A DNA stretch of 64,000 nucleotides, from assembly GCA_041648335.1 (NCBI GenBank), contig JBAZPG010000004.1:13793-77792 (forward strand), read 5' to 3'. Below, piece after piece: positions 18,547-37,448 of this stretch. A model generated the notes under the pieces. It saw nothing but the letters and a program-made list of their open reading frames with translations. It searched no databases and was not told the origin of the DNA. Both the position numbers and the translations under genes were made by a program. This stretch comes from Candidatus Micrarchaeia archaeon. GTDB lineage: Archaea; Micrarchaeota; Micrarchaeia; Norongarragalinales; Norongarragalinaceae. How positions within the stretch are numbered: position 1 is the stretch's first letter; every line of letters begins with the position of its first letter.

Positions 18547-20241
18547 GTGCGCAAGCTTTATGCGTTACTCGTTTTTGCAGTCCTATCGTCGTGCCTCGCT
18601 TCCGGGCAAGTGCTCGTGAATTCGCGCGACTGGCAGGATGTTTACCAGGGCGTGCTTTACGCCCAATCGTTCGGCGGCGCAACCGTCGAAGAATGCCGCT
18701 TCCTCCTGTCTTCGGACCACGCGGTGCACCAGTTCCTGAACGCCTCCAAGCCCGTGCTCTACATCGAGGGCAACCAGAATTATTACCCCGATTACGCGGG
18801 CGTGCTCTCGGACGCGGGTTTCACGCAAGTCGACGAACTGGCGCTCTCGGGGCTCCCCCTTGCAATGGAGCTCGCCGAGCGCGCGGACTGCTCGAAGTTC
18901 ATAATCGTCGGGGACGCGGCGGGTTACCACGCGGTGAGCGCTGCGCCTTACGCTTCGTTCACCCGGTCGTGCGTGCTCTTCGCGAACGCGGGCAATGCTG
19001 GCGAGATTGCATCGTTCTTGTCTGGACGCGCGGAGTCCACGATGGTTTTCGGTCCGGTTGACTCCGCGGTCGCCGGGGCGCTGGCGCCGTTGAGTCCCGA
19101 GACGGTGAGCACGGGCAGCCGCTACGGGGATAACATCGAAATCGTGTCGCGTTACCGCGCATTGAACCCCGTGGCGCAGGTTTCGTTCTCGAACGGGGAG
19201 TTCCTCGAAGCCAGTTTGTTCAGCGCATTTCCCGTAGTTCTCATCGGCCGCGATTACCCGCCGCAATCCGTGCTGGATTACTTCAACGGCGAGGGCAGCG
19301 GGGTAACCGTGGGCGTCGTGGTAGGGAACGACTTGCTGGGCGCAGCCAAGATAATCAAGGACGAGACGCCCGTTGAGGCGGTTTTCGTGAAATACGCCCA
19401 AGGGTGGGCGAAGCCGGGTTCGTTCTACTCGGAAGTCAGCGGCTTGGATTTGTTCTATTTGCCGGTTTATGATACGGGTTTGGAAGTGTCGCGTGCGGGT
19501 TACAACCTAGAGTCCCGCGAAATACAAGTCACCTTCGTCAACCCCTCCGAGTCGCTGCCGGTTTACTTCGAGTCCGCGACCACCCTGTATGCGGACGGCG
19601 TCGCGGTTGCAACGGTTTCCGACGCGGATGTCCTGCAGCTGGATGCTGGAAAAACGCTCGTCGTAGCCTACCCCGTGGCTGACGATTCGACTATAGTGAC
19701 TGCGGTGCGCGCCGGTTCGGCGTTTTCCGCGGAAGTGTTCGCCCGTTACGGCGGGGACGCCTCCGAGATGACGGATGAACTCAAGGAGACGTATCCCGTG
19801 GAGTTCGGCGAATCCGCCGACTCCTCCCTGCTCTCGCTCGGCGCGGTTTCCTATGACTCGAGTGCGTTCAAGCTTTACGTGGACTTGACTAACGAAGGCG
19901 GCGTTCCAGCGTTCGCGAACGTGCTCGTCACCGCGAAGGTGAACAACGTGGAGAACGCGTTCGAAACCATCGAGCCCGTGGAAGTGCCGGTATCAACCGA
20001 GCCCTACCGCGTTTCATTTGACTTGCGCTTGACCGAGGATGCGGCGCGCACCCTGTGGGGGAGCCCCGCGCTCGTGAGTGTTGATTACGGTGCGTCCCAA
20101 GGGTTGCTGTTGAAGCACCTTGAAGAGGAGCGCGGCGTGCAGGGCACCGCCGGTTTGAACCCGCTCCTCGTCGCCGGCGCGTTCCTGTTGGCCATCATAC
20201 TCGCGGCAGCGTACTGGTTCGGCGCAAAGAAGCGCAAGTGA
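18547..20241 (+). CDS. secreted surface protein with a C-terminal TM anchor ending KKRK
   Basis: N-terminal signal peptide; C-terminal NPLLVAGAFLLAIILAAAYWFGAKKRK. Confidence 0.5.
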   Translation: MRKLYALLVFAVLSSCLASGQVLVNSRDWQDVYQGVLYAQSFGGATVEECRFLLSSDHAVHQFLNASKPVLYIEGNQNYYPDYAGVLSDAGFTQVDELALSGLPLAMELAERADCSKFIIVGDAAGYHAVSAAPYASFTRSCVLFANAGNAGEIASFLSGRAESTMVFGPVDSAVAGALAPLSPETVSTGSRYGDNIEIVSRYRALNPVAQVSFSNGEFLEASLFSAFPVVLIGRDYPPQSVLDYFNGEGSGVTVGVVVGNDLLGAAKIIKDETPVEAVFVKYAQGWAKPGSFYSEVSGLDLFYLPVYDTGLEVSRAGYNLESREIQVTFVNPSESLPVYFESATTLYADGVAVATVSDADVLQLDAGKTLVVAYPVADDSTIVTAVRAGSAFSAEVFARYGGDASEMTDELKETYPVEFGESADSSLLSLGAVSYDSSAFKLYVDLTNEGGVPAFANVLVTAKVNNVENAFETIEPVEVPVSTEPYRVSFDLRLTEDAARTLWGSPALVSVDYGASQGLLLKHLEEERGVQGTAGLNPLLVAGAFLLAIILAAAYWFGAKKRK

Positions 20242-21224
20242 ATGCCTTGGACTTGAATCCAGCGGTTGCCGCTGTTTTAGCAGCACTCCTATTCTTGCCG
20301 TTTGCCTCCGCAGGCGGAGCCGCGGTCAGCGGGGGGAACGTATCCAACCTGCTCATCGATGCTTCGGTGCAGACGGGCGCGTGGGCGGGCGTTTACGGTT
20401 GGGTGGCTACGGGTGCGGGTGCGGTGGGTGAGACACTTTATTCGGGGAACGTATCCAACTTCACCGTGGTGTTCCCGTTGTATTGCACGGGCGGCGACAA
20501 CTTCCTGCTCGCCTCGAATTCCTCCACGCTGGATTGGAGCGCGCTCGCGAAGGGCGAACCGGCGGCGTTGGATTCGTTGCTGGGTTTCACCGGGAACGAG
20601 TCGGATTCGGCTAACCAGACGTTCAACGCGAGCGTGGACTACGCGATGGGCTCCCAGGTTTTCTTGGGGGCTAACGCGACTTACACTTTTTCGCAGTCCC
20701 TATCGCCCGGGTTCGACGAGGGGCTATTGGTGGATTCGTCGAGCGGGGCTTTCGTGTTCGTGACGCGCATTCACGCGGGCGAACTCGCGTTCTCGGGCGA
20801 ACCCGCGGACTTCCAGCTCTTGTTGCCCGTAGTCGGCGGTGTTGGTGCGAACGAATCGTATTACTTTTACGGTTCGGCGTTCAACTGCCCCGTGTCCACC
20901 GCGCCGTTGCAGCAGGGTGGGGCGGGCGGAGTGAACGTGCCCTATTCGCCGGACGGGGGCGGGGCGGGCGAGCCGACTTACGACCCGCAGAATTGGCCGG
21001 GCAAGGGTTGGGCTTCCCCGACTCCCCGGCCTTCACCCGCCGCTTCACCGTCGCCGCTTCCCGAGTTGAGCATAACCGGGGTGTTATTCGTAATGGAGGG
21101 CGGGGACATCCTGGGGTTGTCGGGTTTCGTGGCGCGCTATTGGTCGATTTTCGTTGTTGCCGCGATGTTCGCGGTGCTAATCGCGCTTGTCCTGTGGATG
21201 TTCGCCATGCGCCGCACCAACTGA
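20238..21224 (+). CDS. secreted glycoprotein-like protein with a Pro/Ser linker and C-terminal TM anchor (paralog of 17758..18465)
   Basis: Start overlaps the upstream stop (GTGA). Contains GGNVSN, the linker PTPRPSPAASPSPLPELS and a C-terminal hydrophobic helix ending RRTN. Confidence 0.5.
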   Translation: MNALDLNPAVAAVLAALLFLPFASAGGAAVSGGNVSNLLIDASVQTGAWAGVYGWVATGAGAVGETLYSGNVSNFTVVFPLYCTGGDNFLLASNSSTLDWSALAKGEPAALDSLLGFTGNESDSANQTFNASVDYAMGSQVFLGANATYTFSQSLSPGFDEGLLVDSSSGAFVFVTRIHAGELAFSGEPADFQLLLPVVGGVGANESYYFYGSAFNCPVSTAPLQQGGAGGVNVPYSPDGGGAGEPTYDPQNWPGKGWASPTPRPSPAASPSPLPELSITGVLFVMEGGDILGLSGFVARYWSIFVVAAMFAVLIALVLWMFAMRRTN

Positions 21225-24200
21225 CTTCAAGTCCGCCACGTTCACTTCAACTATGCGGCTGCCCTGCTTGCCCTGCATCGCGACGCCCACCAGGCAGTCC
21301 GCGTTCTTGTAAACCGTGTCGTTGTGCGTCACGACTATGAATTGCCCGTTCTTGCTCAACGCCTTCAACAACAACGCGAGCTTGCGCGAGTTCTCCTGGT
21401 CGAGCGCCGCGTCGGATTCGTCTAAAACGTAAACCGAGCTCGGGTTCGCGGACTGCACTGCGAACAGGAAGAGCAGGGCGATGAGGGCCTTTTCGCCGCC
21501 GCTCATCAGTTCCAGGTAGCGTATCTCCTTGTTGTCGAGTTCGACCTGAATCGTTAGTCCGCCCTCGAACGGCGCGTCCGGGTTCTCGAGGTAGAGCGAG
21601 CCGTGCCCGGTGAATATCTCGCCGAAAATGTTCTCGAACGACTTGTTGATGTGGTTGAACGTGGCCATGAACGTCTCCTTCTTCCTGCCTTCTATCTCGT
21701 TGATTATGCTGATTACCGCGTCCTTCTCCACGCCGAGTTGGGTGACGCGCTGCTTCTGTTCCTCGAGCTCGCGGAAACGTTGTCCGTACTTCTCGATTGC
21801 CGAGAGGTTCGGGTTCCCGAGTCCGGCGAGCGTCTCCTCGAGCTTCTTGCGCGCCAACGAGAGTTCCGGCTCGTGCTTCTTGGCGAGCTTCTCGCGCAGC
21901 GGTTCCACGCCCTCGTATTCCGCGAGGCGCGCCTTCGCCTCGACGAGGCGTTCGTCCACGTGCGCCTTCTGCACCTCGAGGTCCGTGCTCTCGCGGCGCA
22001 ACCCCTCGAGCGAGAACTGGCTGCCGCCTTTTTCGTTCGCCAGCGCGCCGATTTCCTTTTCGAGCCGGTTCCGCGTTTCCATGAGCTCCCCGAACTCCTT
22101 GGAGAACTCCCGGTAACGCTTCTGCTTCTCGGCGAGCGTCCCCTTGGCGGCACGTATCTCGTCGTCCGCCTTGTTCACCGCGTCCCTGCATTCCCCGAGG
22201 GCGCCCTCGGCTTCAGCGAAGCGCTTCTTCGCGGAATCGAACTCGCGTTGCGCGTACCCGCTCTTCGCCTCGGCCGCCTCCAACTCGGCGCGCGCCTTGT
22301 TCTCCGCGGTCTTCAACTCGCCGAGCTTGCGTTCGCGCTCGCGCGCGAGCCCGCCCAGGCGCGACTCCGTCTCCAAATCGATTTTCTCCTTGGCGGAAAG
22401 GTAATCGATGTTCAACTGGGAGAGGCGCTTGATCAACGCGCTCTTCTCCTCGTCCTTCCCCGCCGCGCCCTCGGCGCACTCCTTGATTTCCTTTTTCAAC
22501 TCGTTCGCCGCGCTCTTCGCGTTCGCGTTCCTCGACGTCCACTCCGCCTCGCTCTTGCGCGACTGCCCCAACTCGAGTTCGAGGGTCTTCAAGTTGAGTT
22601 CCGCACGGCTCTTCTCGCGGCGCGCTTCCGCGAGTGCATCGCGCACGCGGGACAATTCGGCGTAAACGCCCTCGCGCTCGGCTTTCGCCGCGTCCAAACG
22701 CGCGCGGAGTTTCTCGAGCGTAGCCTGTTCCGCGTAAACATTAACCGTCCGCTTCGCGCTCCCCCCGGTCACGAGCCCGCTTGCCTCCGCCAGTTCGCCC
22801 TGCATTGTCACGAGGCGCAGCTTGCGCACGAGCGGTTCCGCCGAGGCGAAGTCCTTCATCACCAGCGTGTTCCCGCACGCGTATTCCACCGCGCGGGCAA
22901 TCGAGGAATCGTATTCCAGCAAGTCGAGCAGGAACCCAACCGCACCCGGCGCCTTCGCGTGCTCCTTGTCCTCTGCCGACGGCTTTCGCGACTCGATTTT
23001 GTTAAGGGGAATGAACGACAAGCGCCCGAGGCGGTTCTTCTTCAAATACTCTACCGCCTGCCCGGCGGTCTTCACGGAATCAACAACAAGGTAGTTCAGG
23101 CGCGAGCCCAACGCGATGGTCACGGGGAGCGAGTGCTCGTCGTCGTAGGATATTAGTTCCTGGAGGATGCCGTGAACTCCCTTTACATTCTCCTTCACGC
23201 TCCGCGCCGCGGCAGTGTCCTCGCCCGCGCGTTCCCCAGCCATCTTTAAGCGGGACTCCTTCTCGACTATCTTCTCGCGGATTTCAAGGAGTTCGCCCTC
23301 GATTTTGGGTAAACCCTCGTTCAGCTTGCGTTCACTTTCGAAGAGTGCGCGTTGGCTGTTCTCCTTCTCGCGGTGCTCGCGTTCCGCTTGCTTGCGTTCC
23401 GCCTCGAGTTCGCTCTCCTTTCGCGCGTAATCCTCTTCGGGCGTGCCCTGGCGCAGGCGTTCGAGCTCGCGTTCCTTGAGTGCCTTGCGTTCGACCAATA
23501 TTGCGGATTCGCCCTGGAGTTTCTGGAGGGCGTCCTTGGTGCGCCCCATCTCCGTTTCGCACTCGCTTGCCTTGCGGCGCGCCTCCTGGAAGCCCTTCGA
23601 GAAAGCGTCCGCCTGCCCCAAGAGGGCTTTGAGTTCGCGTTCCTCTTTACCAACGATTTCCGCGAGCGACTTCGCCTCGTCGGCGAGTTCCTCCGAGCGC
23701 CGCTTCGCCCCGCCCAACTCGTCCTGGGCGCGCTGCATCGCGAGGCGTTCGTCGTCCTTGCGGCGTTCGAGGCGCGCCTCCTCGGTTTTCTTGTTGTCGA
23801 TGAGTTGCTTGTTCGCGTTGATTGCGTTGTTCAACGCGTTTATCTCGGCTTCGATTCCGCCCTCGAGGGCGCGCTTGTTCAACTCCGCGCTCGCCTGCTC
23901 TTTCTCCGCGTTCTTCGCGGTTATCCGCGCCTCGAGCTCCCTTATCTTGTGTTCCGCGGCGTTAGCCGCCGTTTCCCCGGCGAACAGCTTCTCGACGAGC
24001 GCCTCGAACTCCCTGGACAAGTCCGCGTGCGCGATTTCCGCGAGCGTGGCCTTCACGCGCTTTAACGCGGCATCCGTGTCGCGCCATTTCTCCGCCTTCT
24101 CCTTCTCGTCCTTCAACTCGCGGAGGTAACCCTCCTTCTCGTGCAAACTCACGTTCGCCTCGCCTATCTTCTGGTCCACGCGGCCGAGCTCGGCGAACGC

Positions 24201-24680
24201 CTCCTTCTTCTTCTCCTCGTACTCGCTCACGTTCGCGATTACGTCAATCAGTTCGCGGCGCTCCTTGGGGTGCATCTCGACGATGCGCTGGACTTCCCCC
24301 TGCTTGATGAAGTTGTTTAGCGAGATGCGCTTCTCGGCGAGGAACTCGTCGATTACGTACTTGTTCACGCGCTTGTCGTCCAGACGGTACTGCATCTTGC
24401 CGTCCGCCCGGATTTTGCGGGTGACGCTCCGCTTCTTGCCGTTGTCGTCGAACTCCACCGTGACCTCGGCAACGTTCGAGCCGTGCGAAATCAGGTCGCC
24501 TACCTTCTTGGCGCGCAACTGCTTGAGGCGCGAGTCCCCGAACGCGAACTGGAGGGCGTCCGTGATGTTGCTCTTCCCGCTCCCGTTCGGGCCGATCACG
24601 CAGTCCACGCCCGGCGTGAACGTGACCGTGGCGTTCTTGAACGACTTGAAGTTCTTCAGGACTACCTTATCTATGAACAT
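21177..24680 (-). CDS. smc: chromosome segregation protein SMC
   Basis: 1167 aa with N-terminal Walker A GPNGSGKSN, a long coiled-coil, a hinge region, and C-terminal signature LSGGEKALIALLFLFA plus Walker B YVLDESDAALD. Confidence 0.95.
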   Translation of the reverse strand: MFIDKVVLKNFKSFKNATVTFTPGVDCVIGPNGSGKSNITDALQFAFGDSRLKQLRAKKVGDLISHGSNVAEVTVEFDDNGKKRSVTRKIRADGKMQYRLDDKRVNKYVIDEFLAEKRISLNNFIKQGEVQRIVEMHPKERRELIDVIANVSEYEEKKKEAFAELGRVDQKIGEANVSLHEKEGYLRELKDEKEKAEKWRDTDAALKRVKATLAEIAHADLSREFEALVEKLFAGETAANAAEHKIRELEARITAKNAEKEQASAELNKRALEGGIEAEINALNNAINANKQLIDNKKTEEARLERRKDDERLAMQRAQDELGGAKRRSEELADEAKSLAEIVGKEERELKALLGQADAFSKGFQEARRKASECETEMGRTKDALQKLQGESAILVERKALKERELERLRQGTPEEDYARKESELEAERKQAEREHREKENSQRALFESERKLNEGLPKIEGELLEIREKIVEKESRLKMAGERAGEDTAAARSVKENVKGVHGILQELISYDDEHSLPVTIALGSRLNYLVVDSVKTAGQAVEYLKKNRLGRLSFIPLNKIESRKPSAEDKEHAKAPGAVGFLLDLLEYDSSIARAVEYACGNTLVMKDFASAEPLVRKLRLVTMQGELAEASGLVTGGSAKRTVNVYAEQATLEKLRARLDAAKAEREGVYAELSRVRDALAEARREKSRAELNLKTLELELGQSRKSEAEWTSRNANAKSAANELKKEIKECAEGAAGKDEEKSALIKRLSQLNIDYLSAKEKIDLETESRLGGLARERERKLGELKTAENKARAELEAAEAKSGYAQREFDSAKKRFAEAEGALGECRDAVNKADDEIRAAKGTLAEKQKRYREFSKEFGELMETRNRLEKEIGALANEKGGSQFSLEGLRRESTDLEVQKAHVDERLVEAKARLAEYEGVEPLREKLAKKHEPELSLARKKLEETLAGLGNPNLSAIEKYGQRFRELEEQKQRVTQLGVEKDAVISIINEIEGRKKETFMATFNHINKSFENIFGEIFTGHGSLYLENPDAPFEGGLTIQVELDNKEIRYLELMSGGEKALIALLFLFAVQSANPSSVYVLDESDAALDQENSRKLALLLKALSKNGQFIVVTHNDTVYKNADCLVGVAMQGKQGSRIVEVNVADLKSVGAAHGEHPQDKRD

Positions 24681-24797
24681 GGCTTTTTCCAGCGTTCCGG
24701 GTTGATGGTAGGAATCACGCGAAACGCCTTTAAAATACGTTCACCGCGTCAAAGCCCACCCTATGGTTGCCTTCCTTTTTCCATCCTTGCCGTTGGC

Positions 24798-25220
24798 TCA
24801 ATTTAGCTGCTTAACCATCAAATCGGGCGCGCACTCTTCTTTCCTCTTGCAGTGTAGGCAAACAAAAAGAGGTTGCGGGAACTCGTCTTCGCCAATCTTT
24901 CTGAAGCCCGCCGCTTCATAGAACCCCCGGGCGTGCCGGGTTATCAAGAAAATGCGTTGGGCGCCTAGTTTTTTTGCGGTTTCAATAACCTTATTCATCA
25001 GTTTTGTTCCAATGCCCTTGTTTTGATGCTTTTTGTCAACCGCAAGCAGGTCGAGCTTGTATTCATTGCCGGAACCGCGGAGAATTACGCTGCCCACGGG
25101 TTTTCCGTCCTCTATGGCCTCCCACGCTTTCAGACAGTTGTCAAAAGGGTGCACGTTCATGCCGAAGCTCTTTGCGAGCGACTCCACGAACGCAAAGTTT
25201 TTCGTTTCCCTTATTTCCAT
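24798..25220 (-). CDS. GNAT family N-acetyltransferase
   Basis: Acetyl-CoA-binding motif Q/RxxGxG/A (HQNKGIGTKLM) with a GNAT fold-length core. Confidence 0.8.
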   Translation of the reverse strand: MEIRETKNFAFVESLAKSFGMNVHPFDNCLKAWEAIEDGKPVGSVILRGSGNEYKLDLLAVDKKHQNKGIGTKLMNKVIETAKKLGAQRIFLITRHARGFYEAAGFRKIGEDEFPQPLFVCLHCKRKEECAPDLMVKQLN

Positions 25221-25426
25221 GATTTAATGTGCCTGGAGCCGGCTATTAAACTCTGGGGAATCCTGCGGTTCAGGAAAGGGGCGCGCACTCGACTATCGCC
25301 TCGTCGCCCTGCGCCGAGATGCCCCGCACCTCGAACGGCGACGCAGCGAACGCGGAAAGCAAATCCGCGTAACACAACTTGCTGACGTTTATTCTCATTT
25401 TTCCAACACCTCTTTTTTTGGGGACC

Positions 25427-25511
25427 TGCCGGGGGCGGGATTCGAACCCGCGATTGACCTTAGCCAAACCGCTCGACAGGCAGTCCCCTTAACCTGCTCG
25501 GGCACCCCGGC
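25427..25511 (-). tRNA. tRNA, 85 nt, with a 16-nt extra arm but a GUC-containing anticodon loop; identity unresolved (possibly Asp-like with a non-canonical insertion)
   Basis: Minus-strand sense GCCGGGG-UG-..-ACUGC-CUGUCGA-GCGGU-UUGGCUAAGGUCAAUC-GCGGG-UUCGAAU-CCCGC-CCCCGGC-A. It has a perfect 7-bp acceptor and T arm. The only pairable anticodon stem gives loop CUGUCGA, and no CCA is encoded. Confidence 0.55.
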
Positions 25512-25540
25512 GCAAAACCTTTTTATATTCCCTCCGGCAC

Positions 25541-25578
25541 TCCTTCCCTTGACAGGCAGTTCCCTTCCGCCCGTTCGG
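25541..25578 (-). repeat. degenerate (~80% identity) partial copy of the 5' half of the adjacent tRNA, located 5' of it
   Basis: GGTGCCCGAACGGGCGGAAGGGAACTGCCTGTCAAGGG aligns with tRNA positions 6-43, GGTGCCCGAGCAGGTTAAGGGGACTGCCTGTCGAGCGG. Confidence 0.5.
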
Positions 25579-25694
25579 GCACCTTTTTCTTTTTTTGTTA
25601 CGGTTTAAAACCAAGGCTCGACCCGTGGCTGCCACTGCTTCCACTCCCCGTTCGGGCAAGAACGCTTTTAACCCCAAAAAGCGTATCCCTTGTC

Positions 25695-26240
25695 ATGGAT
25701 GCGGACGAGGAAGCCGTGCGCTCGCTCAAGCGCTTCTTTTCGGAGCGCGACTCGCGTTCCCTGGAGAGCCAGGCGGCTAGTTTGGCGCGCGAGGCGCTCG
25801 TTCGCACGGATTCCGTGCTCGTGGACTTGTCTATTCTCGCTTTCGTGTTATCCAAGCTCTCGAACAAGCAGCACATCATTGAGTCCCGTTCCTGGGGTCC
25901 CGCATCCGGACGCATCTTGAGCCACCTGGAGGAAGCCGCACTCCAGTTCAAGGGCGGGGCGCGCGTGAAGGCAGGGGAAAGCGTGCGCGCGGCGCTAAAC
26001 GACGTGGACGCCCTCGGATTGGCTGAGGGACGTTTTGTTTCGAGCATGGTGGAGAAGGGGCGCATCAAGGCGGCAGCCCAGATGTACGCGCACGGCGCCT
26101 CCCTGGGGGCAGTCGCCTCGTTTACAGGGGCTTCGAAGTCGGATTTGGCTGATTACGTGGGGAACACCAACATCCCGGACAAGTACTCCTCGATGCCGGT
26201 GCGCGAGCGGCTGGAAGCCGCACGGAAGGTTTTCTCATGA
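25695..26240 (+). CDS. hypothetical protein (181 aa), translationally coupled to the downstream PIN-like gene
   Basis: Stop overlaps the downstream ATG (ATGA at 26237-26240); no recognisable motif. Confidence 0.4.
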   Translation: MDADEEAVRSLKRFFSERDSRSLESQAASLAREALVRTDSVLVDLSILAFVLSKLSNKQHIIESRSWGPASGRILSHLEEAALQFKGGARVKAGESVRAALNDVDALGLAEGRFVSSMVEKGRIKAAAQMYAHGASLGAVASFTGASKSDLADYVGNTNIPDKYSSMPVRERLEAARKVFS

Positions 26241-26902
26241 ACATCGTGTGCGACAGCTCCACGCTAATCTCGCTGGGCTCCACCGGGGTGCTGGACTGCC
26301 TGGAGTTCCTCACCCAGAAGACCGGCGCGTCGTTCATCATTCCCCCCGCGGTCGAGCGCGAGATAATCGGGCACGCCCTCCGCATTGACAAGTACCGCTT
26401 CTCCGGACTCCGTCTAAAGAGCCTGGTGCGCCGCGGCGTGCTCAAGGTAGTCGCCCTGCCCCCGCTGACTCGCGAGGGGCACCGCATACTCGACGAGGCG
26501 AACAACGCGTTCAAGGAGCGCGGGCGCGCATTCCAAATCCTGCAGGAAGGCGAGGCGGAGTGCATCGCCCTGTTGTCGTTCGTGCCCGCGGCTGCGCTCG
26601 CGGTGGACGAGAAAACCACGCGCCTGTTGCTCGAGGACCCCGCGGGTTTGGCGCGCGTAATCCAAGCCGATGCCGGGGAGCGCGTGGAGGCGGACCAGGG
26701 CGCGCTTGCCGCGCTCGCAAAGCGCCGCGGCAATACGCCGATAATCCGTTCCACCGAGATTCTCGCGGTTGCCGTAGAAAAGGGCTTTTTCGATTCCTTC
26801 GGGCAAGACAAGGCCGAAGCGTTGAAGGCGGGAGTGAACGCGTTGCGGCGGGCGGGTTGCAGCATCAGCCACCGCGAGTTGGACGAGTACGAAAGCCTTT
26901 AA
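26237..26902 (+). CDS. PIN-like domain protein (221 aa)
   Basis: N-terminal MNIVCDSSTLISL (PIN Asp-1), then acidic positions AVEREI, GEAECIALL and AVDEKT in PIN-like spacing. It is longer than a typical VapC. Confidence 0.45.
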   Translation: MNIVCDSSTLISLGSTGVLDCLEFLTQKTGASFIIPPAVEREIIGHALRIDKYRFSGLRLKSLVRRGVLKVVALPPLTREGHRILDEANNAFKERGRAFQILQEGEAECIALLSFVPAAALAVDEKTTRLLLEDPAGLARVIQADAGERVEADQGALAALAKRRGNTPIIRSTEILAVAVEKGFFDSFGQDKAEALKAGVNALRRAGCSISHRELDEYESL

Positions 26903-26928
26903 TCCCTTTCCAGCCAAAATTCTTGGAC

Positions 26929-27000
26929 AAGGGCTGGTAGATCAACGGTAGATCGCACGCTCCGCAAGCGTGAGGTTGCGGGTTCAAATCCCGTCCAGTC
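26929..27000 (+). tRNA. tRNA-Ala (anticodon CGC)
   Basis: Acceptor GGGCUGG/CCAGUCC with the G3:U70 alanine identity pair, D stem GAUC/GAUC, anticodon stem CACGC/GCGUG, loop UCCGCAA, T arm GCGGG-UUCAAAU-CCCGU, discriminator A. Position 33 is C rather than U, and no CCA is encoded. Confidence 0.8.
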
Positions 27001-27007
27001 CACTCGC

Positions 27008-27970
27008 GTGAAAAACAAGAAGAACATTTTCCTGTTTGCGAATGTTGTTTTAGCCGTCGCGCTCTTCTATTTGTTCTTCAAGGGCTTGGATTACGCGGCG
27101 TTGGGCGCGATACTCGGGCGCGCGCGCTTCGAGTGGATTCTTGCCGCAGCCGTGCTATACTATACCCTCCAGTTCTCCACTGCCCTGCGCCTGAAGTGGC
27201 TGAGCGACGAGCTCGTGCGCCCGGTGGGCGTTTTGGGTGTTTTCAAGGCGCATCTCGCGGGGCTGCTGTTCAGCGACTATACCCCGGGACGTGCGGGTTA
27301 CGCTTACTTCGTGGTGCGCGCCCGCGAGTGGGGGTTGAAGGCGCGCCAGGGCGTCCGCGTGTTCGGCGTCTCGCTCGCCTCGGACTTCTTCACGCGGGGC
27401 GTTTTCGCTGCGTTGAGCATTTACTACTTGTTCGATTCGCGGGAGGCGTTGCTCGCGTGCGCCGCCCTTCTAGTCGTTGGTTCGCTCGGGTTTCTGTGGG
27501 CGTTAACCGCGCCCCGCAAGCCCATCGCGCGCCTCCTTGCTTTGCTGCCGTCCACGGGTGCCGGGGAATTCTACGCGAGCGTGTTCAAGAAACGCATCTC
27601 CTCTCTGCTCGTCTACCTCAACGTTGGCGTGAGTTTCACCGGGGCGTTCGTGCGCGGCTTGGAGTGGATGTGCCTCGCCGCTGCCTTGGGGCATCCGTTC
27701 GCTTGGAGTGAACTATTCGTGTTCGCGGCGTTCAACTCCGTGTTGACTGCGTTGTCTTTCGTTCCGTTGAGTGTTGCCGGCCTCGGTTTGCAGGAGGGTG
27801 CGGGTGCGTTGTTCTTTTCGGCCGCACTCGGTGTTGATTTGGCTTTTGCGGGCGCGCTCATGCTCCTCGTGCGGTTCACCGAGGCGGGTTGCAACCTCGC
27901 GGGGTTGGCGGGTTTGGTTGCCCCAAGCGGGAAAACAAAGTCAACCAAAATTACGAAGAAGCGCAGCTGA
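27008..27970 (+). CDS. flippase-like domain membrane protein (UPF0104 / lysyl-PG synthase TM-region family)
   Basis: 320 aa, about 8 TM segments, N-terminal pattern typical of UPF0104. GTG start 8 nt after the tRNA-Ala. Confidence 0.5.
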   Translation: MKNKKNIFLFANVVLAVALFYLFFKGLDYAALGAILGRARFEWILAAAVLYYTLQFSTALRLKWLSDELVRPVGVLGVFKAHLAGLLFSDYTPGRAGYAYFVVRAREWGLKARQGVRVFGVSLASDFFTRGVFAALSIYYLFDSREALLACAALLVVGSLGFLWALTAPRKPIARLLALLPSTGAGEFYASVFKKRISSLLVYLNVGVSFTGAFVRGLEWMCLAAALGHPFAWSELFVFAAFNSVLTALSFVPLSVAGLGLQEGAGALFFSAALGVDLAFAGALMLLVRFTEAGCNLAGLAGLVAPSGKTKSTKITKKRS

Positions 27971-28054
27971 GCCGCTGGAAAAATAAACCCCGTTTGCCGA
28001 ACCGCTGCTGTTTTCAGTAGTCGTTTTTGTTTTTGCGGTTTTATTGCTTCGGGT

Positions 28055-28756
28055 TCACTCGGCTTTCGCGGGCTTCTCGCGCGGCACGCATTCTTCCTTG
28101 AAGATTATCTTCTTGACTTCAGGGATGAATTCGGTGGCCTGCACGTAGAAGCGCGTCTTGAGCACGAGGTACTCGCGCGAGAACTTGTCCACCTTCTCGG
28201 GCACGTCCACCGTTCCCACGCCCGCCTCGTAAGCTACTTTTGCGTCGGGCAGCAGGTCGTCTGCGAGCGCGGTGAACTTGTCGCCGGGCTTCTCAAGCAC
28301 GTCGAGCACCTTGTACTCGTAAACGATTTCGCGGTCCGCGAGCGGGTGGTTGAAGTCCACGCGCACCCGTCCCCCGGAGACGCTCTGGACGCGGGCGCGC
28401 CTTCCGTCCAACTCGACGGGCATGCCCACGAACGGCTGCACCTTCTGCTCCTGGAATTTTGCCAGCGGCACCAGGCGGACTTCCTCGCTGTTCTTCCTGC
28501 CGAACGCCTTCTCGGGCGCCAGCGTCAGCGTCTTTTCATCGCCCTTCTTCGCCTTGAATAACTCTTCCTCCAAACCCTGGAGTATCTGGTGTTTTCCAAG
28601 GGGCACGAGCACCGGGCCGTACTTCACGCGCGGGTCGAACGTGCCGGCCTCGCGGGCGCGCTTCTCACTCGTAGTATCAAACACGACGCCGTCGTCCTTG
28701 GTTGCACCCGTGAAATCGATTTTAACGAAGTCCCCTTCCTTTGGCATTGAATACAT
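28055..28756 (-). CDS. FKBP-type peptidyl-prolyl cis-trans isomerase (archaeal long type)
   Basis: N-terminal FKBP domain GDFVKIDFTG..DGVVFDTT with an insert-in-flap, and a C-terminal extension. Confidence 0.85.
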   Translation of the reverse strand: MYSMPKEGDFVKIDFTGATKDDGVVFDTTSEKRAREAGTFDPRVKYGPVLVPLGKHQILQGLEEELFKAKKGDEKTLTLAPEKAFGRKNSEEVRLVPLAKFQEQKVQPFVGMPVELDGRRARVQSVSGGRVRVDFNHPLADREIVYEYKVLDVLEKPGDKFTALADDLLPDAKVAYEAGVGTVDVPEKVDKFSREYLVLKTRFYVQATEFIPEVKKIIFKEECVPREKPAKAE

Positions 28757-28767
28757 TCACCTGTTTT

Positions 28768-29415
28768 TTAGTTCGTAGAGTTACCGCTGGTTTCGTTTAC
28801 AGTATTATTTCCATCCGCTTCGGGCTTTAAAGTTTCGCTTTCAAAGTCCGCAGCCGCCTGTTCGATTATCAGGCGCGCCACGCCGTCCGCGTCGATTTCC
28901 GCGTACACGCCCACCGGCACCTCGTCGCCGACTTCGACACCGAGTGCGTCCACGTATGCGGGCTGCCCGTTCAGGTTGACGGGTTGCAAGTCGCGGGTTT
29001 CGTTCGAGTCGAGCGTGTACAACGTGATTTTTGCAGCAAAATTAAGGCGCGCCACGCGCATCAAGAGCGCGTCGCACAACGGTTCGAGGGCGTCGCGTGC
29101 GTCCGCCATTGAGGCGTTCTCGTTGATTTGCGCGGCGTACGCGTTCTCGGACACCTTGTACACGAGCGTGAAGCCCGGCAGCGCTTCGAGCGCCGCCTGG
29201 GCTTGCGTGGAGTTGCACGAGAACGCGTATATCTGGTTCTCCAACTTCGTCACGGTGCCCGTGCCTTGGCCGCCGCCCTTGAACGCCGCCTGCGCGGCTG
29301 GCGAGGGTGTTGGTTTTGCCGAATCCGAAGAATACATGAGCACCGAGAACGTGCCAACGATGAACGTCAGTATTATCATTACCCCGAAGGCAACCATCAA
29401 CGTCTGTTTTTTCAT
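28768..29415 (-). CDS. secreted or membrane-anchored hypothetical protein
   Basis: 215 aa with one N-terminal TM helix. Confidence 0.4.
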   Translation of the reverse strand: MKKQTLMVAFGVMIILTFIVGTFSVLMYSSDSAKPTPSPAAQAAFKGGGQGTGTVTKLENQIYAFSCNSTQAQAALEALPGFTLVYKVSENAYAAQINENASMADARDALEPLCDALLMRVARLNFAAKITLYTLDSNETRDLQPVNLNGQPAYVDALGVEVGDEVPVGVYAEIDADGVARLIIEQAAADFESETLKPEADGNNTVNETSGNSTN

Positions 29416-29441
29416 GAATAACCACCACTAGCTATTTTCAA

Positions 29442-29948
29442 TCAGTAATAATGTATTCTTATTTGTTTAAGGAGTTTTTGGCGTTCGAGTATGGCTTCCA
29501 TCCAGTGGTTGCCGCCCCATACATTTGCCTTCCTAATTTTTTCCTTGCTGGACGGTATCAAGCGCGATAGCACCGTTGCTGCGGCTTCGTGCATTGCTTT
29601 CTGGGACAGTTTCAGCACGCGGCCGTCCGTGGTCTTGGTTTGCCTCAACGTGCCAAACTTTTTGGCGAGTTCGCTCCCGTGTTTTTCCAAGTCCTCGTCG
29701 GTCACGCCCGCCTCTTTGAGAACGTCTAGGACATGCTCTTCGTTGCTGTTGAACAGGTTTCCCGGTGCGGAGTAAGCAAACTTACCCTTGCCGTCACTCC
29801 AACGGAGCCCTTTTCTGCTCGCGGTTGACCGCCCGCGGGCATTAGTCCACTCGAGTTCGTCTAACAGGAAGCCACGCGTCCTCTCGATTAACTCGTATCT
29901 TTGTTTGAATCCGAAAGCGAGTTGTCCGCCTTGTTCTTCCCTCAACAT
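29442..29948 (-). CDS. hypothetical protein
   Basis: 168 aa, hydrophilic; no motif recognised. Confidence 0.3.
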   Translation of the reverse strand: MLREEQGGQLAFGFKQRYELIERTRGFLLDELEWTNARGRSTASRKGLRWSDGKGKFAYSAPGNLFNSNEEHVLDVLKEAGVTDEDLEKHGSELAKKFGTLRQTKTTDGRVLKLSQKAMHEAAATVLSRLIPSSKEKIRKANVWGGNHWMEAILERQKLLKQIRIHYY

Positions 29949-29952
29949 TTCA

Positions 29953-31287
29953 TCACTTGGGCGCGTACTTCAACAGTTTCTTGCGGAGCTCCTCGCCCGC
30001 CTTGTTGTCGAGCGTTACCGTGTTATCGCGTATCTCCATCAGGTTCTTGGATTGCATTGCGAACTTGTTGGGCGCCAAATCCTTGTACAATAAGACGCCC
30101 GAACCCACGATGGAGTGCGGACCCACCTTCACGCCGGGCATTATGGTGGCGTTGCTTCCCGTCTTGCAGTTGTCCGCCATTATCACGCCGAGTTTGTTCG
30201 TGCCCGAATCCATCTTCCCCTTGCCGAGCACCTCGACTTGGATGTGCGCCTCGTCGAACCGGAAGTTCGCGGTAATCGTGCCCGCCCCGAGCGAACAGTT
30301 GTCGCCCAACACGGAATCCCCGACGTACGCGGAGTGCGTCCAGCAGTTCTCGCCGATGACCGAGTACTTCACCTCGGTGGAGTAGCCGATGACGCTCTTC
30401 GCGCCGATTGAGGAGTGCCCGCGTACGAGCGCGTTGTTCCCAATCACCGCGTTGTCCCCGATGTAACACGGTCCCTCGATGACTGCGTTCTCGAATACGC
30501 GCACGCCCTCACCGATGTGCACGTGCTCGCCTTTTATCACGGCGCGCTCGGAGATGCGCGCGCTCTTCGCCGTGAACGCCTTTTGTTTGTCCAGGAAGTA
30601 TTCGTTCAAGCGCAACAAGTCCCACGGGAGCTTGTACGAGCCGAAGAAGCCCTTGTAGGATAGGGCGCGCACGTCGCCGCCCGCGTCAATCATCTTTTGT
30701 ATTGCCTCTTCGTACTGTGAGTCGGATTCGGGCACCGCAGCCAGGTGCCTGAAGATGTCCGAGTTGAGTATGTAAACGCCGATTACCGCGTTCTTGGACG
30801 GCTCTTTCCCCTTGTCGGGCTTCTCCACTATGCGGCGCACGCGGTCGCCCTTCAAGTCGAGTATCCCGAACTTCCACGTCTCCTCGGTGGGTTGCGAGGC
30901 GAATACTGCGTCGCACGACGTTGCTTTCGCGAGCATCGCCTTGAGCAAGCCGGGTTCGAACACGTCGTCCGCGTTCACCACCACGAACTTATCCGTCTTG
31001 CCGAGCGCGCCGCGCGCGCAAGCGAGCGCGTCCGCCATTCCCTTCGCTTCCTTCTGGAGCGCGTAGGATATTTTTACGCCGTGGCTTTTCGCGCCGAAGT
31101 AGTCCTTGATTTGTTCGGCGTTGTGCCCGACTACGCACACCGCTTCCTTGAACCCGGCTGCGGCGAGCTCTTCCACAACGTACTCCATGAGCGGCTTGCC
31201 GAGTAGTTTGAACATGGGTTTCGGCTTGTTCACTGCCAACGGGAACACGCGCTTCCCGTTCCCGGCTGCGAGTATGACTGCCTTCAT
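29953..31287 (-). CDS. bifunctional sugar-1-phosphate nucleotidyltransferase / acetyltransferase (GlmU-like; N-terminal NTP-transferase plus C-terminal left-handed beta-helix)
   Basis: N-terminal MKAVILAAGNGKR nucleotidyltransferase fold and C-terminal hexapeptide repeats; 4-nt overlap with the upstream gene. Confidence 0.85.
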   Translation of the reverse strand: MKAVILAAGNGKRVFPLAVNKPKPMFKLLGKPLMEYVVEELAAAGFKEAVCVVGHNAEQIKDYFGAKSHGVKISYALQKEAKGMADALACARGALGKTDKFVVVNADDVFEPGLLKAMLAKATSCDAVFASQPTEETWKFGILDLKGDRVRRIVEKPDKGKEPSKNAVIGVYILNSDIFRHLAAVPESDSQYEEAIQKMIDAGGDVRALSYKGFFGSYKLPWDLLRLNEYFLDKQKAFTAKSARISERAVIKGEHVHIGEGVRVFENAVIEGPCYIGDNAVIGNNALVRGHSSIGAKSVIGYSTEVKYSVIGENCWTHSAYVGDSVLGDNCSLGAGTITANFRFDEAHIQVEVLGKGKMDSGTNKLGVIMADNCKTGSNATIMPGVKVGPHSIVGSGVLLYKDLAPNKFAMQSKNLMEIRDNTVTLDNKAGEELRKKLLKYAPK

Positions 31288-32612
31288 TTTAACGCCGCCT
31301 CCACGAGTGCGCGTCCGGCGCGCGCCAATTCCTCCAAACGCTTTTGAGTATAAGCTTCGCAGTTCACCTTCAAGTAGGGTTCGGTGCCGCTCGGGCGCAC
31401 GAGGAGCCAGGCGCCGTCCGCGAAATCAACCCGCACCCCGTCTATCTCCGTCGCTTTCCCTCCGAGTGCGCGGACTCCCCCGGCAACCGCACGCATCGCT
31501 TTTGCCTTTTCCTGGTTGGAACACGCTAAACGCGTCTTGTCGAAGAAAACGCGGGGAATGCCGGAAAATTCTTTTTTAACCGCGTTCACGTCGCGTTTCG
31601 AGAGCAGCAACGCGGCAGGGTAAACCGTTGAAGAAAAGAAACCGAAGCGGGGCACGAGGTAGTGCCCGCACTCCTCGACGCCCAGCGCCGCTCCTCGGTT
31701 GCGCACGGCGCGCGCGATTACCGTGTCCCCGACTACGGTGCGGTAGAGCGTTCCCCCCGCCTGCTCGATTGCCTTCTCAACGAAGCGCCCGGTTTCCACC
31801 GAGCCCACGACCTCTTTTTTTACCGAGTCCGAGAGCACGCTCGCGGCCACGGCTGCATTGCCTTCTTGGAAGCCCAGGAAGCCGTTGCGGTCCAGGAACA
31901 CGATGCGGTCGTTGTCGCCGTCCAGGCACAACCCCGCGTCCGCCTTGTTCTCGCGGCTGAACGCGATTGTTTTCGCGAGCGTGTCCGGCTTGGGTTCGAG
32001 CGGGCGGTCGCACTTCGTAACATCCGGAGTGCAATTTACTTCGAGGACTTCGTGCCCGTGCGAACGCAAGAGCGCAGGCAGGTGTTCGGAATCAGGGCCG
32101 CACGCGCAGTCCACTGTCAAACGCATTTTCTTCAAGGGCTTCGGGCACAACCGCGCGAGGCGCGCGTAATACTCGCTTGCGCCATCCGCACGCGCCTCTT
32201 TACCCGCGGCGTTCTTCGCGCGCTTCGAGGGCGCGGCGTACTCGCGTTCGATTGCCTCTTGGTCGGTTGCCATTCCAAGCGCGTCGCAATACTTGAACCC
32301 GTTGTACTCGGGCGGGTTGTGGCTCGCGGTAATCATCACGCCCGCATCGAACCCGAGTTCGCGCGTCAAAAAATAGAGTCCCGGAGTGGAGAGCACGCCC
32401 AGGCGCGTCACGCCAAGCCCCGCTTCGAGCAATTCATCGACTGTTTTCTCTTCCAAGTCCGGACCGCTGCGGCGGGTGTCGCGCGCAACGCAAACACGCT
32501 TCCCTTCGCCTACGACTGCGGCGAACGCGTGGCTCAAACGCTCCACTAGTTCGTCGTTGACTTCAGTTCCGACGACGCCGCGGACTCCCGACGTTCCGAA
32601 TAGCTTGTTCAC
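31284..32612 (-). CDS. glmM: phosphoglucosamine mutase / phosphomannomutase (alpha-D-phosphohexomutase family)
   Basis: Active-site TASHNPPEYNGFKY, Mg-binding DGDNDR, and sugar-binding GVEECGH. Confidence 0.9.
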   Translation of the reverse strand: MNKLFGTSGVRGVVGTEVNDELVERLSHAFAAVVGEGKRVCVARDTRRSGPDLEEKTVDELLEAGLGVTRLGVLSTPGLYFLTRELGFDAGVMITASHNPPEYNGFKYCDALGMATDQEAIEREYAAPSKRAKNAAGKEARADGASEYYARLARLCPKPLKKMRLTVDCACGPDSEHLPALLRSHGHEVLEVNCTPDVTKCDRPLEPKPDTLAKTIAFSRENKADAGLCLDGDNDRIVFLDRNGFLGFQEGNAAVAASVLSDSVKKEVVGSVETGRFVEKAIEQAGGTLYRTVVGDTVIARAVRNRGAALGVEECGHYLVPRFGFFSSTVYPAALLLSKRDVNAVKKEFSGIPRVFFDKTRLACSNQEKAKAMRAVAGGVRALGGKATEIDGVRVDFADGAWLLVRPSGTEPYLKVNCEAYTQKRLEELARAGRALVEAALK

Positions 32613-33727
32613 TTCCTCTTCTTGCTCCCTTTAAGCAGGTAATACGCGCTCCCGAGAACCAGCGCCAAGCCCCCGAGAAGGAGCAGCGAGTTGTAATCGC
32701 TTGCCGGTTCCGGCGCGACGCCAGGGCTGGGCGACGGGCTCGGCGAAGGCGTTGCCGCAACGGCTTCCACGCAGGCGCCGTCCACGCACGCGCACGCCTT
32801 CTCCTTGTTCGCTATGCTTGCGCCCAGGCAGTAATACTCGAAGAGCGAGTCCCCTGCCGCGCAGTAGTCGGCGAACTCGTTCGCCTCCGTTGACACCGTG
32901 CCCTTTTCGTCGTAGAACAATCCGCCGTCACTGTCCGCGCAACTCGGGTTTATGGTGCACGCGCCCTGCGAACAGCCGTCGGTGCACTCCGTGCCTTGGG
33001 CTGCGCACCCGCCCTCGGTGCACGAGTAATCCAACAGCCAGTTGTTGACGCAGCCGTTCCTGCCGCTTATCGTGATTGAATCGCACCCATCCTCAACGTC
33101 AACGCATTCGGGTTCACAGCACGCAAGGTAGTTCACGCGGTTCGTGCTCGAGGGAATCCAGCCCGCAGGCGACTCCAACAGCACGGTTCCCAGTGCGTAA
33201 CCGCCTGCCGCTTCCGCAAGCACCACGAACTCGTTGGATGCGGCGGCGTCTTCCGCGCCGAACGCGTAGGCGCGCGGCGAACTGACCGTGACCACGCTGG
33301 CGTTCACTTCCACGCCGTCCATTTTCAGGAGGCGTGAACCGTACGTAAATGAAAGCGTTTCGAAAACGTCGCGCGTGCTCGAGTATTCCCCGCAGTAATA
33401 ATCCACCACCCCGTTTTCGGCTTCGGTAACCGAGGACTCGCTCTCGCCGTTCGCCTGTTTCACGAACGCTTCTCCGAGGTGGTCGCCGCCGATGCTAGAG
33501 TAATCCTGGCGTATCAACACGAAAACGTTCTTGCCGATGTTCCCGAACGCCATCGCCTGATCGGGGTTGATGGAGTTGAACCGGATGACGCCGCCCTGCA
33601 AGTCCCACGCGTAAGCGGGAATCAGGAACGCCGCCTCGTCGTAACCAACGTAGAATGTGTTCGCGCAATCCGCGAGCGCGCTCGCGAGGCACGATGCGGC
33701 AACCATCAACAAAAGAACCTTGTTCAT
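32609..33727 (-). CDS. Cys-rich secreted surface protein with a Pro/Ser linker and a C-terminal TM anchor ending KKRK
   Basis: Signal peptide; C-terminal ..ATPSPSPSPSPGVAPEPASDYNSLLLLGGLALVLGSAYYLLKGSKKRK. Confidence 0.5.
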   Translation of the reverse strand: MNKVLLLMVAASCLASALADCANTFYVGYDEAAFLIPAYAWDLQGGVIRFNSINPDQAMAFGNIGKNVFVLIRQDYSSIGGDHLGEAFVKQANGESESSVTEAENGVVDYYCGEYSSTRDVFETLSFTYGSRLLKMDGVEVNASVVTVSSPRAYAFGAEDAAASNEFVVLAEAAGGYALGTVLLESPAGWIPSSTNRVNYLACCEPECVDVEDGCDSITISGRNGCVNNWLLDYSCTEGGCAAQGTECTDGCSQGACTINPSCADSDGGLFYDEKGTVSTEANEFADYCAAGDSLFEYYCLGASIANKEKACACVDGACVEAVAATPSPSPSPSPGVAPEPASDYNSLLLLGGLALVLGSAYYLLKGSKKRK

Positions 33728-35424: not shown

Positions 35425-35936
35425 TTCAACCGCCTCGCGACGAGTTCGCGCGCGAAATAGCCGAACGCCAACGAACCGACAACCAAAAGCACCACGCCCG
35501 ACGGGTCGAGAGCCGCGGCGTTGCGTACGACCTCGTTAGTCGATTCCGCGAACGCCTTGTCCGTTGCGCTCCCGAGCACGGGTGCGGGCGCCTGCGTTGG
35601 AATCGTGGGGAACAACCGGTAAACGCCCGCGATTATTGCGAGCGCGCTTGCCCCCAACAGGAAGAGGACACGCGAGCCCCCCGGCTGGACTACGCTCCGT
35701 CCTTTCTCGGTCAAGTCGAAGTAAACCCACTTGCCGTTCGCGCGGCGCGCCACGAGCCCTGCCTTGAGCATTTTCTCCAAATGCTGCCCGGTCGCTTGGA
35801 CGCTCGTCTTCGACTCGCGCGAGAGCTCGCTCGCGGTCTTGCCGCGTTCGCACAGCGACTTGAGCATGGAGACGCGGGCATCGCTCGCGAGCGCCTTGAA
35901 CGACTCCAAATCCAGGACTACTTCACCCAACTTCAA
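35421..35936 (-). CDS. winged-HTH (ArsR-like) regulator fused to a C-terminal TM region
   Basis: wHTH SMLKSLCERGKTASELSRESKTSVQATGQHLEKMLKAGLVAR followed by two hydrophobic helices. The N-terminal Arg-rich extension of the ORF is discounted. Confidence 0.45.
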   Translation of the reverse strand: MKLGEVVLDLESFKALASDARVSMLKSLCERGKTASELSRESKTSVQATGQHLEKMLKAGLVARRANGKWVYFDLTEKGRSVVQPGGSRVLFLLGASALAIIAGVYRLFPTIPTQAPAPVLGSATDKAFAESTNEVVRNAAALDPSGVVLLVVGSLAFGYFARELVARRLK

Positions 35937-36860: not shown

Positions 36861-36867
36861 TTCAGAT

Positions 36868-37434: not shown

Positions 37435-37448
37435 CGGACGGTCTGACA
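37435..37448. repeat. left copy of a perfect 14-bp direct repeat (CGGACGGTCTGACA) flanking a low-GC cassette
   Basis: The identical 14-mer recurs at 38634..38647, and the intervening ~1.2 kb is markedly AT-richer than the flanks. Confidence 0.55.

Follow-up and report, generated by a model that had tools for sequence, protein, structure and literature searches.

Two secreted proteins of a Micrarchaeota archaeon with similar C-terminal tails, probably type I stop-transfer membrane anchors

Within a 64,000-nucleotide window of Candidatus Micrarchaeia archaeon DNA (contig JBAZPG010000004.1; "the window" means this whole stretch), two secreted proteins, here protein 1 and protein 2, end in tails that resemble one another. 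These tails are probably ordinary type I (bitopic, N-out/C-in) stop-transfer membrane anchors. The original prediction for this DNA, which is archaeal and has 60% GC, had singled out the signature N-[SP]-LL followed by AY[YW] and KKRK, and proposed that it marks a lineage-specific sorting signal served by a cognate processing enzyme. The reading as anchors rests on the features of the sequences, on predicted helices, and on the finding that orthologues of the two proteins share no conserved signature.

The two proteins and their tails

Both open reading frames (ORFs) and both 27-residue tails are as first described, and their coordinates and ends have been confirmed (Table 1). Protein 1 terminates in ...GTAGLNPLLVAGAFLLAIILAAAYWFGAKKRK and protein 2 in ...TPSPSPSPSPGVAPEPASDYNSLLLLGGLALVLGSAYYLLKGSKKRK; the latter is identical to WC607_02170, a hypothetical protein from a Candidatus Micrarchaeia archaeon metagenome-assembled genome (MAG) at NCBI. 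It was also correct that the carriers are secreted and otherwise dissimilar. Each has the N-terminal signal peptide of a type I anchor, as judged by eye from the ORF, and the ectodomains are unrelated (best BLASTP E=0.16). In the JGI annotation, protein 1 (P0001, 543 residues) begins at Val22 and lacks the signal peptide (18547..18609). The longer reading from the GTG start is supported by the orthologue P0002, in which a signal peptide precedes the conserved V[IL]VNS. Pfam and NCBIfam scans of the whole of protein 1 gave no family match, and the AlphaFold2 (AF2) models are poor (pLDDT 43.6 for protein 1 and 31 for protein 2), so that only their tail helices have been used.

In context, tail 1 reads ...GTAGL-NPLLVAGAFLLAIILAAAYWFGAKKRK and tail 2, which follows a Pro/Ser-rich linker, reads ...TPSPSPSPSPGVAPEPASDY-NSLLLLGGLALVLGSAYYLLKGSKKRK. 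From the Asn to the stop, each is exactly 27 residues long. The ungapped alignment gives 11 identities in 27 positions, with the AY[YW] element shifted by two residues between the tails. Hydropathy scans and AF2 place a single hydrophobic helix of about 20 residues at the C-terminus of both carriers and no other transmembrane (TM) segment in the mature part. The AF2 helix of tail 1 spans residues 539-563, beginning straight after N538, and that of tail 2 spans residues 346-370, beginning at N346; the latter is the only part of the protein 2 model with a pLDDT above 50. In agreement with the positive-inside rule, a Lys/Arg cluster (GAKKRK, KGSKKRK) lies at the extreme C-terminus, and it is kept in kind in all orthologues. 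Helices and a signal peptide elsewhere in this genome also start with N-[AP]-hydrophobic (ENALVF, ENAAII and ENALVV, LNPAVA among these internal helices and the signal peptide). Because such starts occur elsewhere and AF2 begins both tail helices at the Asn, this residue fits the role of a helix N-cap.

A stop-transfer anchor of this kind would work as follows. Each protein would be exported through Sec by means of its signal peptide, and at the end of translocation the C-terminal helix would halt transfer and move laterally into the membrane. The Asn would cap the helix at its junction with a flexible Gly- or Pro/Ser-rich stalk, the Tyr/Trp cluster would sit at the cytoplasmic interface of the membrane, and the terminal Lys/Arg run would stay in the cytoplasm, fixing the orientation. 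The outcome would be an ectodomain held by a stalk on the outside of a small DPANN cell; we infer both this topology and the retention of the helix in the mature protein. The resemblance of the tails would then arise because one membrane imposes the same physical constraints on both and because a 60% GC genome gives both a composition rich in Ala/Gly/Leu, and the identical KKRK would be a chance sharing of the commonest kind of basic end.

There is precedent for such an arrangement. Archaeosortases have been described only for a subset of Euryarchaeota, and archaea without them use C-terminal TM anchors, as in SlaB of the Sulfolobales (PMC6098224). The window proteins resemble SlaB-type proteins in having a signal peptide, an ectodomain, a stalk, a single C-terminal helix, and a short basic cytoplasmic end, and in coming from an organism with no known archaeosortase (PMC6098224). 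Unlike SlaB, to which they have no sequence relationship, they have a helix whose retention is predicted, and an Asn cap that is unusually frequent among the sampled Micrarchaeota anchors. If the tails are plain anchors, the result is a small descriptive addition: many otherwise unannotatable Micrarchaeota surface proteins would be tethered by a stalk and a C-terminal helix. The combination of an Asn cap, an aromatic belt, and a Lys/Arg end may then help to annotate the surface proteomes of DPANN archaea; the surfaces of Micrarchaeota mediate contact with their hosts.

The N-termini of the two carriers also have a motif in common, SCLAS (MRKLYALLVFAVLSSCLASG and MNKVLLLMVAASCLASA). Set against the lipobox pattern [LVI][ASTVI][GAS]C, LSSC of protein 1 fits and AASC of protein 2 nearly fits. 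Lipobox proteins are prevalent in DPANN (PMC12462473), and the carriers might have a lipid anchor at the N-terminus in addition to the helix at the C-terminus. Alternatively, SCLAS may simply be a signal peptidase I site, for which ASG/Q is a candidate in protein 1 and ASA/L in protein 2.

Loss of the proposed signature in orthologues

Homologues of both carriers are very rare. Protein 1 has a sole homologue, P0002 (32% identity), whose tail, ARIDVVFYMAIAIIIILAIGLVILIRKKRKSES, terminates in VVFYMAIAIIIILAIGLVILIRKKRKSES; it contains a TM helix and RKKRK, and lacks both NPLL and AYW. For protein 2, orthologues range from one nearly identical to others that are distant (Table 1), and the five aligned tails of this family contain no invariant column. 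The corresponding caps read DYNTWM.., DYGFYA.., DGNGFV.., and DY-SLQ... The N-[SP]-LL element is lost in P0002, L037, and L004, and AY[YW] is likewise lost in orthologues of both carriers. What persists across the orthologous tails is the hydrophobic helix, the aromatic cluster at its cytoplasmic end, and the Lys/Arg run, whose length and sequence vary (AKRK, KHRKK, KKTKKRKKRKK); the Asn and the LL do not persist.

In true sorting signals no element is better conserved than the signature (PGF, PEP, LPXTG), and the helix and tail can be dispensed with. An archaeosortase- or exosortase-type signature, abutting the helix and better conserved than it, is not present in these families. P0003 and P0004 show 8 differences in the helix core, whereas they agree at 12 of 12 positions of AYYLLKGSKKRK at the cytoplasmic end. 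In these alignments the best-conserved element is the juxtamembrane and cytoplasmic stretch, the very portion that a sortase-type enzyme would remove; a sortase-type signal would show the opposite pattern.

Known sorting signals and processing enzymes

The layout that suggested a sortase substrate, a polar cap followed by a TM helix and a basic cluster, is indeed present. Nevertheless, scans of the whole proteins with NCBIfam and Pfam found no C-terminal sorting domain; the sole match was that of LPXTG_anchor to protein 2 (8.7 bits, E=3). When the tails alone were compared with this model (TIGR01167, cutoff 15.9 bits), tail 2 scored 18.0 bits, P0004 20.9, L014 19.4, and tail 1 13.9. These matches cover only model positions ~10-34, the helix and the basic tail, with alignments that begin no earlier than positions 6-10, and leave out the LPXTG part, which indicates that the layout is generic to C-terminal anchors. 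By sequence, then, the tails look like the generic back half of a sortase signal with no known front half. Neither they nor the residues upstream (...EEERGVQGTAGL and ...SPGVAPEPASDY) contain an LPXTG, PGF, PEF, PEP, or GlyGly signature, in line with the claim that the signature is unlike the known ones. Membership in the known CTERM sorting domains was rejected, only the partial LPXTG_anchor matches having emerged from the NCBIfam and Pfam scans; the NCBIfam negatives are weak, since a PEF-type control tail (L055) was missed too.

Comparison with the known systems gives a similar picture. Like LPXTG signals, the tails run from polar residues through a hydrophobic helix to a Lys/Arg tail at the extreme C-terminus, and those of protein 2, P0004, and L014, at 18-21 bits, exceed the model cutoff. 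Unlike them, they match at positions 10-34 only, have no LPXTG or variant upstream, and occur with no sortase gene in the accessible DNA. Classic LPXTG substrates also start the helix with Asn-Pro, after the sortase motif and independently of it, as in protein A (..EENPFIG..) and M6 (..ANPFFT..). To our knowledge, Micrarchaeota have no peptidoglycan to which proteins could be attached. Substrates of archaeosortases (PGF-CTERM/ArtA, PEF-CTERM) are likewise archaeal secreted proteins with a tripartite C-terminus, often after a Thr/Ser/Pro-rich linker; the window tails differ from them in having no PGF or PEF motif, no model match at E<=10, a candidate signature that is unconserved, and no archaeosortase gene in the accessible DNA. 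The window tails do not match Loki-CTERM (NF033507) either; only a non-Micrarchaeal control, L065, does so, at 15.9 bits and below the cutoff of that model. Beside this Loki-CTERM-like tail, the non-Micrarchaeal sequences examined include PEF-type tails (VPEFALTF..., VPEFPSW...).

A cognate enzyme has not come to light in the DNA searched. Searches for carriers and enzymes in this genome covered ~80 kb (the 64 kb window with 16 kb of flanking sequence) of a 533 kb contig. Pfam tables and scans of this DNA hold no sortase (PF04203) or sortase-like protein, and the exosortase/archaeosortase (PF09721), rhomboid, and CPBP families have no member among the multi-TM proteins encoded there or in the flanks. 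A PF09721-type protein was also missing from the Pfam tables (~60 kb) and, like sortases, rhomboids, and CPBP proteins, from ten multi-TM ORFs of other Micrarchaeota loci, out of ~550 kb of such DNA; these ORFs belong to the T2SS-F, EamA, GT2, DUF92, M48, or Yip1 families, except for one with no match. This negative covers a small part of the genome and is absence of evidence rather than proof of absence. In the literature, no paper was found that connects Micrarchaeota or DPANN with sortases, archaeosortases, or CTERM signals.

Recurrence of the tails and alternative explanations

Relatives were sampled by an SMC query of genome contigs, which gave 24 Micrarchaeota loci, and by a GlmU-like query of metagenome contigs, which gave 80 loci, ~10 from close relatives and the rest from other archaea; the Micrarchaeota part amounts to ~550 kb from ~30 other Micrarchaeota. 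Nine families in this DNA combine a signal peptide with a single C-terminal helix. The families without an Asn cap are those of L005, L021, and the window protein at 20238..21224. The claim that similar tails sit on unrelated secreted proteins survives in a looser form: N-[SAPTG]-hydrophobic, an aromatic cluster, and a Lys/Arg end recur in other Micrarchaeota, while the exact signature is lost in orthologues. Anchors of other archaea in the sample end alike (AAYLTIKRR in a PEF-type tail, GYVKKRKRKRG, VYFKKRH), which indicates that the AY[YW]..KKRK half of the motif is generic.

Several observations weigh against the tails being nothing but plain anchors. The local BLOSUM62 score of tail 1 against tail 2 is 53, compared with a mean of 25.5 (standard deviation 5.5) for shuffles that left each zone (cap, core, basic end) with its own composition (P=3e-4), and the pair ranks first among 178 pairings of archaeal C-terminal anchors from different families (mean 26, standard deviation 7.8), although it had been picked in the first place for looking alike. 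The helix start N-[SAPTG]-hydrophobic-hydrophobic, together with an aromatic cluster and a Lys/Arg end, is found in members of 6 of the 9 anchored families. In a scripted count, the cap pattern marks 6 of 12 C-terminal anchors vs 12 of 286 (~4%) other TM helices (Fisher p=1.5e-5, a value inflated by the post hoc choice of the pattern and by the orthologues among the anchors counted); even so, the enrichment across the sampled Micrarchaeota is real enough to record. L014 and L007 encode a large coiled-coil-rich secreted protein in two Norongarragalinales MAGs (1070 residues in L014, and 408 in L007, whose copy is truncated where the contig ends), and their tails, NAL[LV]LG..GALVLIALA.FFLRNK, are identical at 22 of 26 positions, compared with just 43% overall identity across the aligned C-terminal ~400 residues; this degree of constraint exceeds what a passive anchor needs. 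Loki-CTERM shows that a tripartite tail confined to one phylum has been defined before, purely from its recurrence. Finally, NCBIfam at E<=10 overlooked the L055 control, and the carrier and enzyme searches reached a small share of the genome.

The likeness of the two tails is nevertheless less singular than its rank suggests. The next-ranked anchor pairs score 50, 46, 45, and 44; the identical KKRK supplies ~15 of the 53 points, and the remaining 38 lie in the ordinary range of other pairs. KKRK-type ends also occur in P0002 (RKKRKSES), in L004 (KKRKKRKK), and in a non-Micrarchaeal anchor (KKRKRKRG). The two tails are unusually alike, and the shared four-residue basic end is most of the excess.

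Could these observations instead reflect a Micrarchaeota-specific sorting signal? Under this explanation, which we consider unlikely, a membrane enzyme would recognise [DE]-x-N-[SAPT]-hydrophobic on the outer side of the helix and would cleave the protein and/or re-anchor it (for example to lipid or the S-layer), as ArtA does with PGF-CTERM. It would account for the tripartite layout, for the similar tails on unrelated secreted proteins of several Micrarchaeota (L014, L016, L020, L026, L030), for the enrichment of the cap at C-terminal anchors, and for a tail 85% identical between L014 and L007 against 43% for the aligned protein; that no known CTERM model claims the tails, and that lineage-specific CTERM domains such as Loki-CTERM exist in NCBIfam, also favor it. 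The Asn and its neighbours, however, are lost in orthologues of both carriers, where the helix and basic end persist, and the accessible sequence holds no candidate enzyme. A six-frame scan of the window for a hydrophobic C-terminus with >=3 Lys/Arg in the last 8 residues found the two ORFs plus an ArsR-type regulator, and the ~16 kb of flanks held no further carriers, so that the total is 2 in ~80 kb, and the operon neighbour of protein 1 has a different tail. A hidden Markov model (HMM) of nine Micrarchaeal tails, a training set chosen by eye for which leave-one-out was judged circular, recovered from ~590 kb of Micrarchaeota DNA its own members and one Asn-less anchor (L021). A tail profile run against 1.84 billion representative proteins returned only the two query proteins and a spurious fasciclin-repeat protein (P0006), with no genuine further carriers; the power of this search is low, and it is not counted against recurrence because a 35-position profile cannot reach significance at that size. 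A search of 5.8 billion proteins, which yielded 92 word-sharing candidates and none at E<=10, is uninformative, its word index being unsuited to a short low-complexity query. Hence neither the lineage-specific signal nor its enzyme has been borne out: the signature is unconserved in orthologues and absent from the operon neighbour, and no candidate enzyme appears in the DNA covered. The fullest form of the idea, a Micrarchaeota-wide sorting domain ([DE]-x-N-[SAPT]-hydrophobic, a small-residue-rich helix, [AG]-[YWF]-[YWF], and a Lys/Arg end) that marks processed or re-anchored surface proteins in these host-dependent DPANN archaea, is similarly improbable. Were a sorting signal to exist, it would represent a new protein-sorting system in a phylum with none known, together with an undiscovered processing enzyme.

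Common descent of the tails is a different matter, since an anchor module copied long ago between the genes, by recombination or exon-like shuffling, would still be a plain anchor. The score of 53 is higher than that of either tail against most of its own orthologues' tails (21-37), both tails measure 27 residues when counted from the Asn and end in G-[AS]-KKRK-stop, and SCLAS is found in both signal peptides. Yet the tails are identical at only 42 of 84 bases (50%, the chance level), and a stretch of 27 residues with a biased composition is too little to prove homology. Moreover, the orthologues already carry C-terminal anchors, which argues that these are ancestral to each family rather than recent gains. 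We regard such copying as quite improbable. Gene conversion or other recent copying between the tails is ruled out by the lack of DNA similarity. Most improbable of all would be a functional motif at the juxtamembrane/cytoplasmic end (AYYLLKGSKKRK / AYWFGAKKRK), either a docking site for a partner or a clamp for lipid headgroups. The complete conservation of AYYLLKGSKKRK between P0003 and P0004 and the recurrence of KKRK-like ends in P0002, L004, and L016 would suit this idea, but the tail is just 4-7 residues long, Lys/Arg runs after a TM helix are expected under the positive-inside rule, and the ends vary widely among orthologues.

Table 1. Features of the window and of related loci; "L" and "P" entries are from other sequences
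Feature	Position	Strand	Description
Protein 1	18547..20241	+	564 aa, from the ORF reading; secreted, fold unassignable, putative C-terminal anchor
Protein 1 signal peptide	18547..18606	+	MRKLYALLVFAVLSSCLASGQ, from GTG start; LSSC and ASG/Q inside; read directly off the sequence
Tail 1	20158..20238	+	N538-PLLVAGAFLLAIILAAAYWF-GAKKRK564; putative Asn cap, TM helix, aromatic belt, basic C-terminus
Protein 2	32609..33727	-	372 aa, secreted, Cys-rich, PS-rich stalk, putative C-terminal anchor
Protein 2 signal peptide	33671..33727	-	MNKVLLLMVAASCLASALA; read directly off the sequence
Protein 2 stalk linker	32693..32752	-	Pro/Ser-rich TPSPSPSPSPGVAPEPASDY, directly before tail 2
Tail 2	32612..32692	-	N346-SLLLLGGLALVLGSAYYLL-KGSKKRK372; putative Asn cap, TM helix, aromatic belt, basic C-terminus
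Protein 2 orthologue P0004			87% identity; tail DYNTWMLLVGAALILAGAYYLLKGSKKRK
Protein 2 orthologue L037	4592..5932		35% identity; tail PDYGFYAMVAALAILLGAVAWWMAKRK
Protein 2 orthologue L030	7359..8606		29% identity; tail DGNGFVLPALAIIIALAAAYLWLNKPPAGKHRKK; cap GNGFVLP..
Protein 2 orthologue L004	3..866		28% identity; tail EDYSLQAALAITALLAAAYVYYAKPFKKTKKRKKRKK
Capped families			Tail 1; tail 2 family; L014/L007; L016; L020; L026
L014/L007	L014 18282..21494; L007 17173..18399	-	Tail ENYNALLLGAGGALVLIALAAFFLRNKQEE; L014 cap ENYNALLLGAGG..
L016			Tail AANAPWFAGLLVLLAGAGYWYYRRGGKRKGL; cap AANAPWFAG..
L020			Tail INTWVF...GYYLLKQQTK
L026			Tail GNSLFLWIVVIGLLVGGWVYFNSTKKKGKEH; cap GNSLFLW..
Control L055	13378..14175	-	PEF-type tail
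Control L096	13887..14984	+	PEF-type tail
Control L065	12346..13497	-	Loki-CTERM-like tail
Operon comparator	20238..21224	+	Third anchored secreted protein, in the protein 1 operon; PS-linker, C-terminal helix ending RRTN
Operon comparator	17758..18465	+	Secreted, no linker, no anchor; paralogue of the 20238..21224 ectodomain (BLASTP E=9e-14)
SpoIIM-family 6-TM protein	16834..17643	-	Pfam PF01944, E=1.5e-14; divergent from the secreted-protein operon; not a sortase-type enzyme
ArsR/SmtB-type regulator	35421..36131	-	HTH_5, HTH_metalloreg; C-terminal end ...VVLLVVGSLAFGYFARELVARRLK
ORF L037	2575..3096	+	173 aa, similar C-terminal helix
Low-GC island	~36000..48000		GC 0.46-0.54 vs ~0.60
RtcB RNA ligase	12487..15087	-	Split by an intein (Pfam Intein_splicing + RtcB)
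Tandem small ORFs	61318..63984	-	Paralogous; weak HEAT-like repeats in Pfam
Large secreted protein	2548..5916	-	1122 aa, no C-terminal anchor
Large secreted protein	6422..12457	+	2011 aa, no C-terminal anchor

Operon neighbours and other loci of the window

Protein 1 lies in a three-gene operon, flanked by two genes whose products are paralogues of each other (17758..18465 and 20238..21224). The tail of the downstream neighbour, ...ARYWSIFVVAAMFAVLIALVLWMFAMRRTN / ...YWSIFVVAAMFAVLIALVLWMFAMRRTN, has neither an Asn cap nor KKRK, and its local scores are 35 to tail 1 and 18 to tail 2. Because the paralogues differ in whether they have an anchor at all, and because the tails differ, anchoring is modular and the anchor sequence is non-uniform within one operon. 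In the relative L004, an orthologue of the SpoIIM-like protein adjoins SMC, and the three-gene operon is absent between them.

The ArsR/SmtB-type winged-helix regulator recovered in the six-frame scan also has a hydrophobic helix with a basic end, and judging from this helix, the protein may be a membrane-tethered transcription factor. A 173-residue ORF of L037 with a similar C-terminal helix may be its orthologue. Next to the regulator, the low-GC stretch is probably a defence or mobile island. It encodes a D12-class DNA methyltransferase, a Swt1-like HEPN protein, an AAA_33 kinase-like protein, a SnoaL-like ORF, and HEAT-repeat proteins, and the genes it carries are not the same in the ENA and Logan assemblies of this population.

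Inteins are found at two places: one splits the RtcB RNA ligase, and the other, with a faint LAGLIDADG match, is in NrdD just past the right end of the window. The tandem small ORFs near that end have near-identical C-termini (...GEHLGQPPAWITT.AKQLKALEGNLK). At the opposite end, of the two very large secreted proteins, the one of 2011 residues contains CarboxypepD_reg, Big_1, and MG-like Ig domains and has a 35% identical orthologue in L004.

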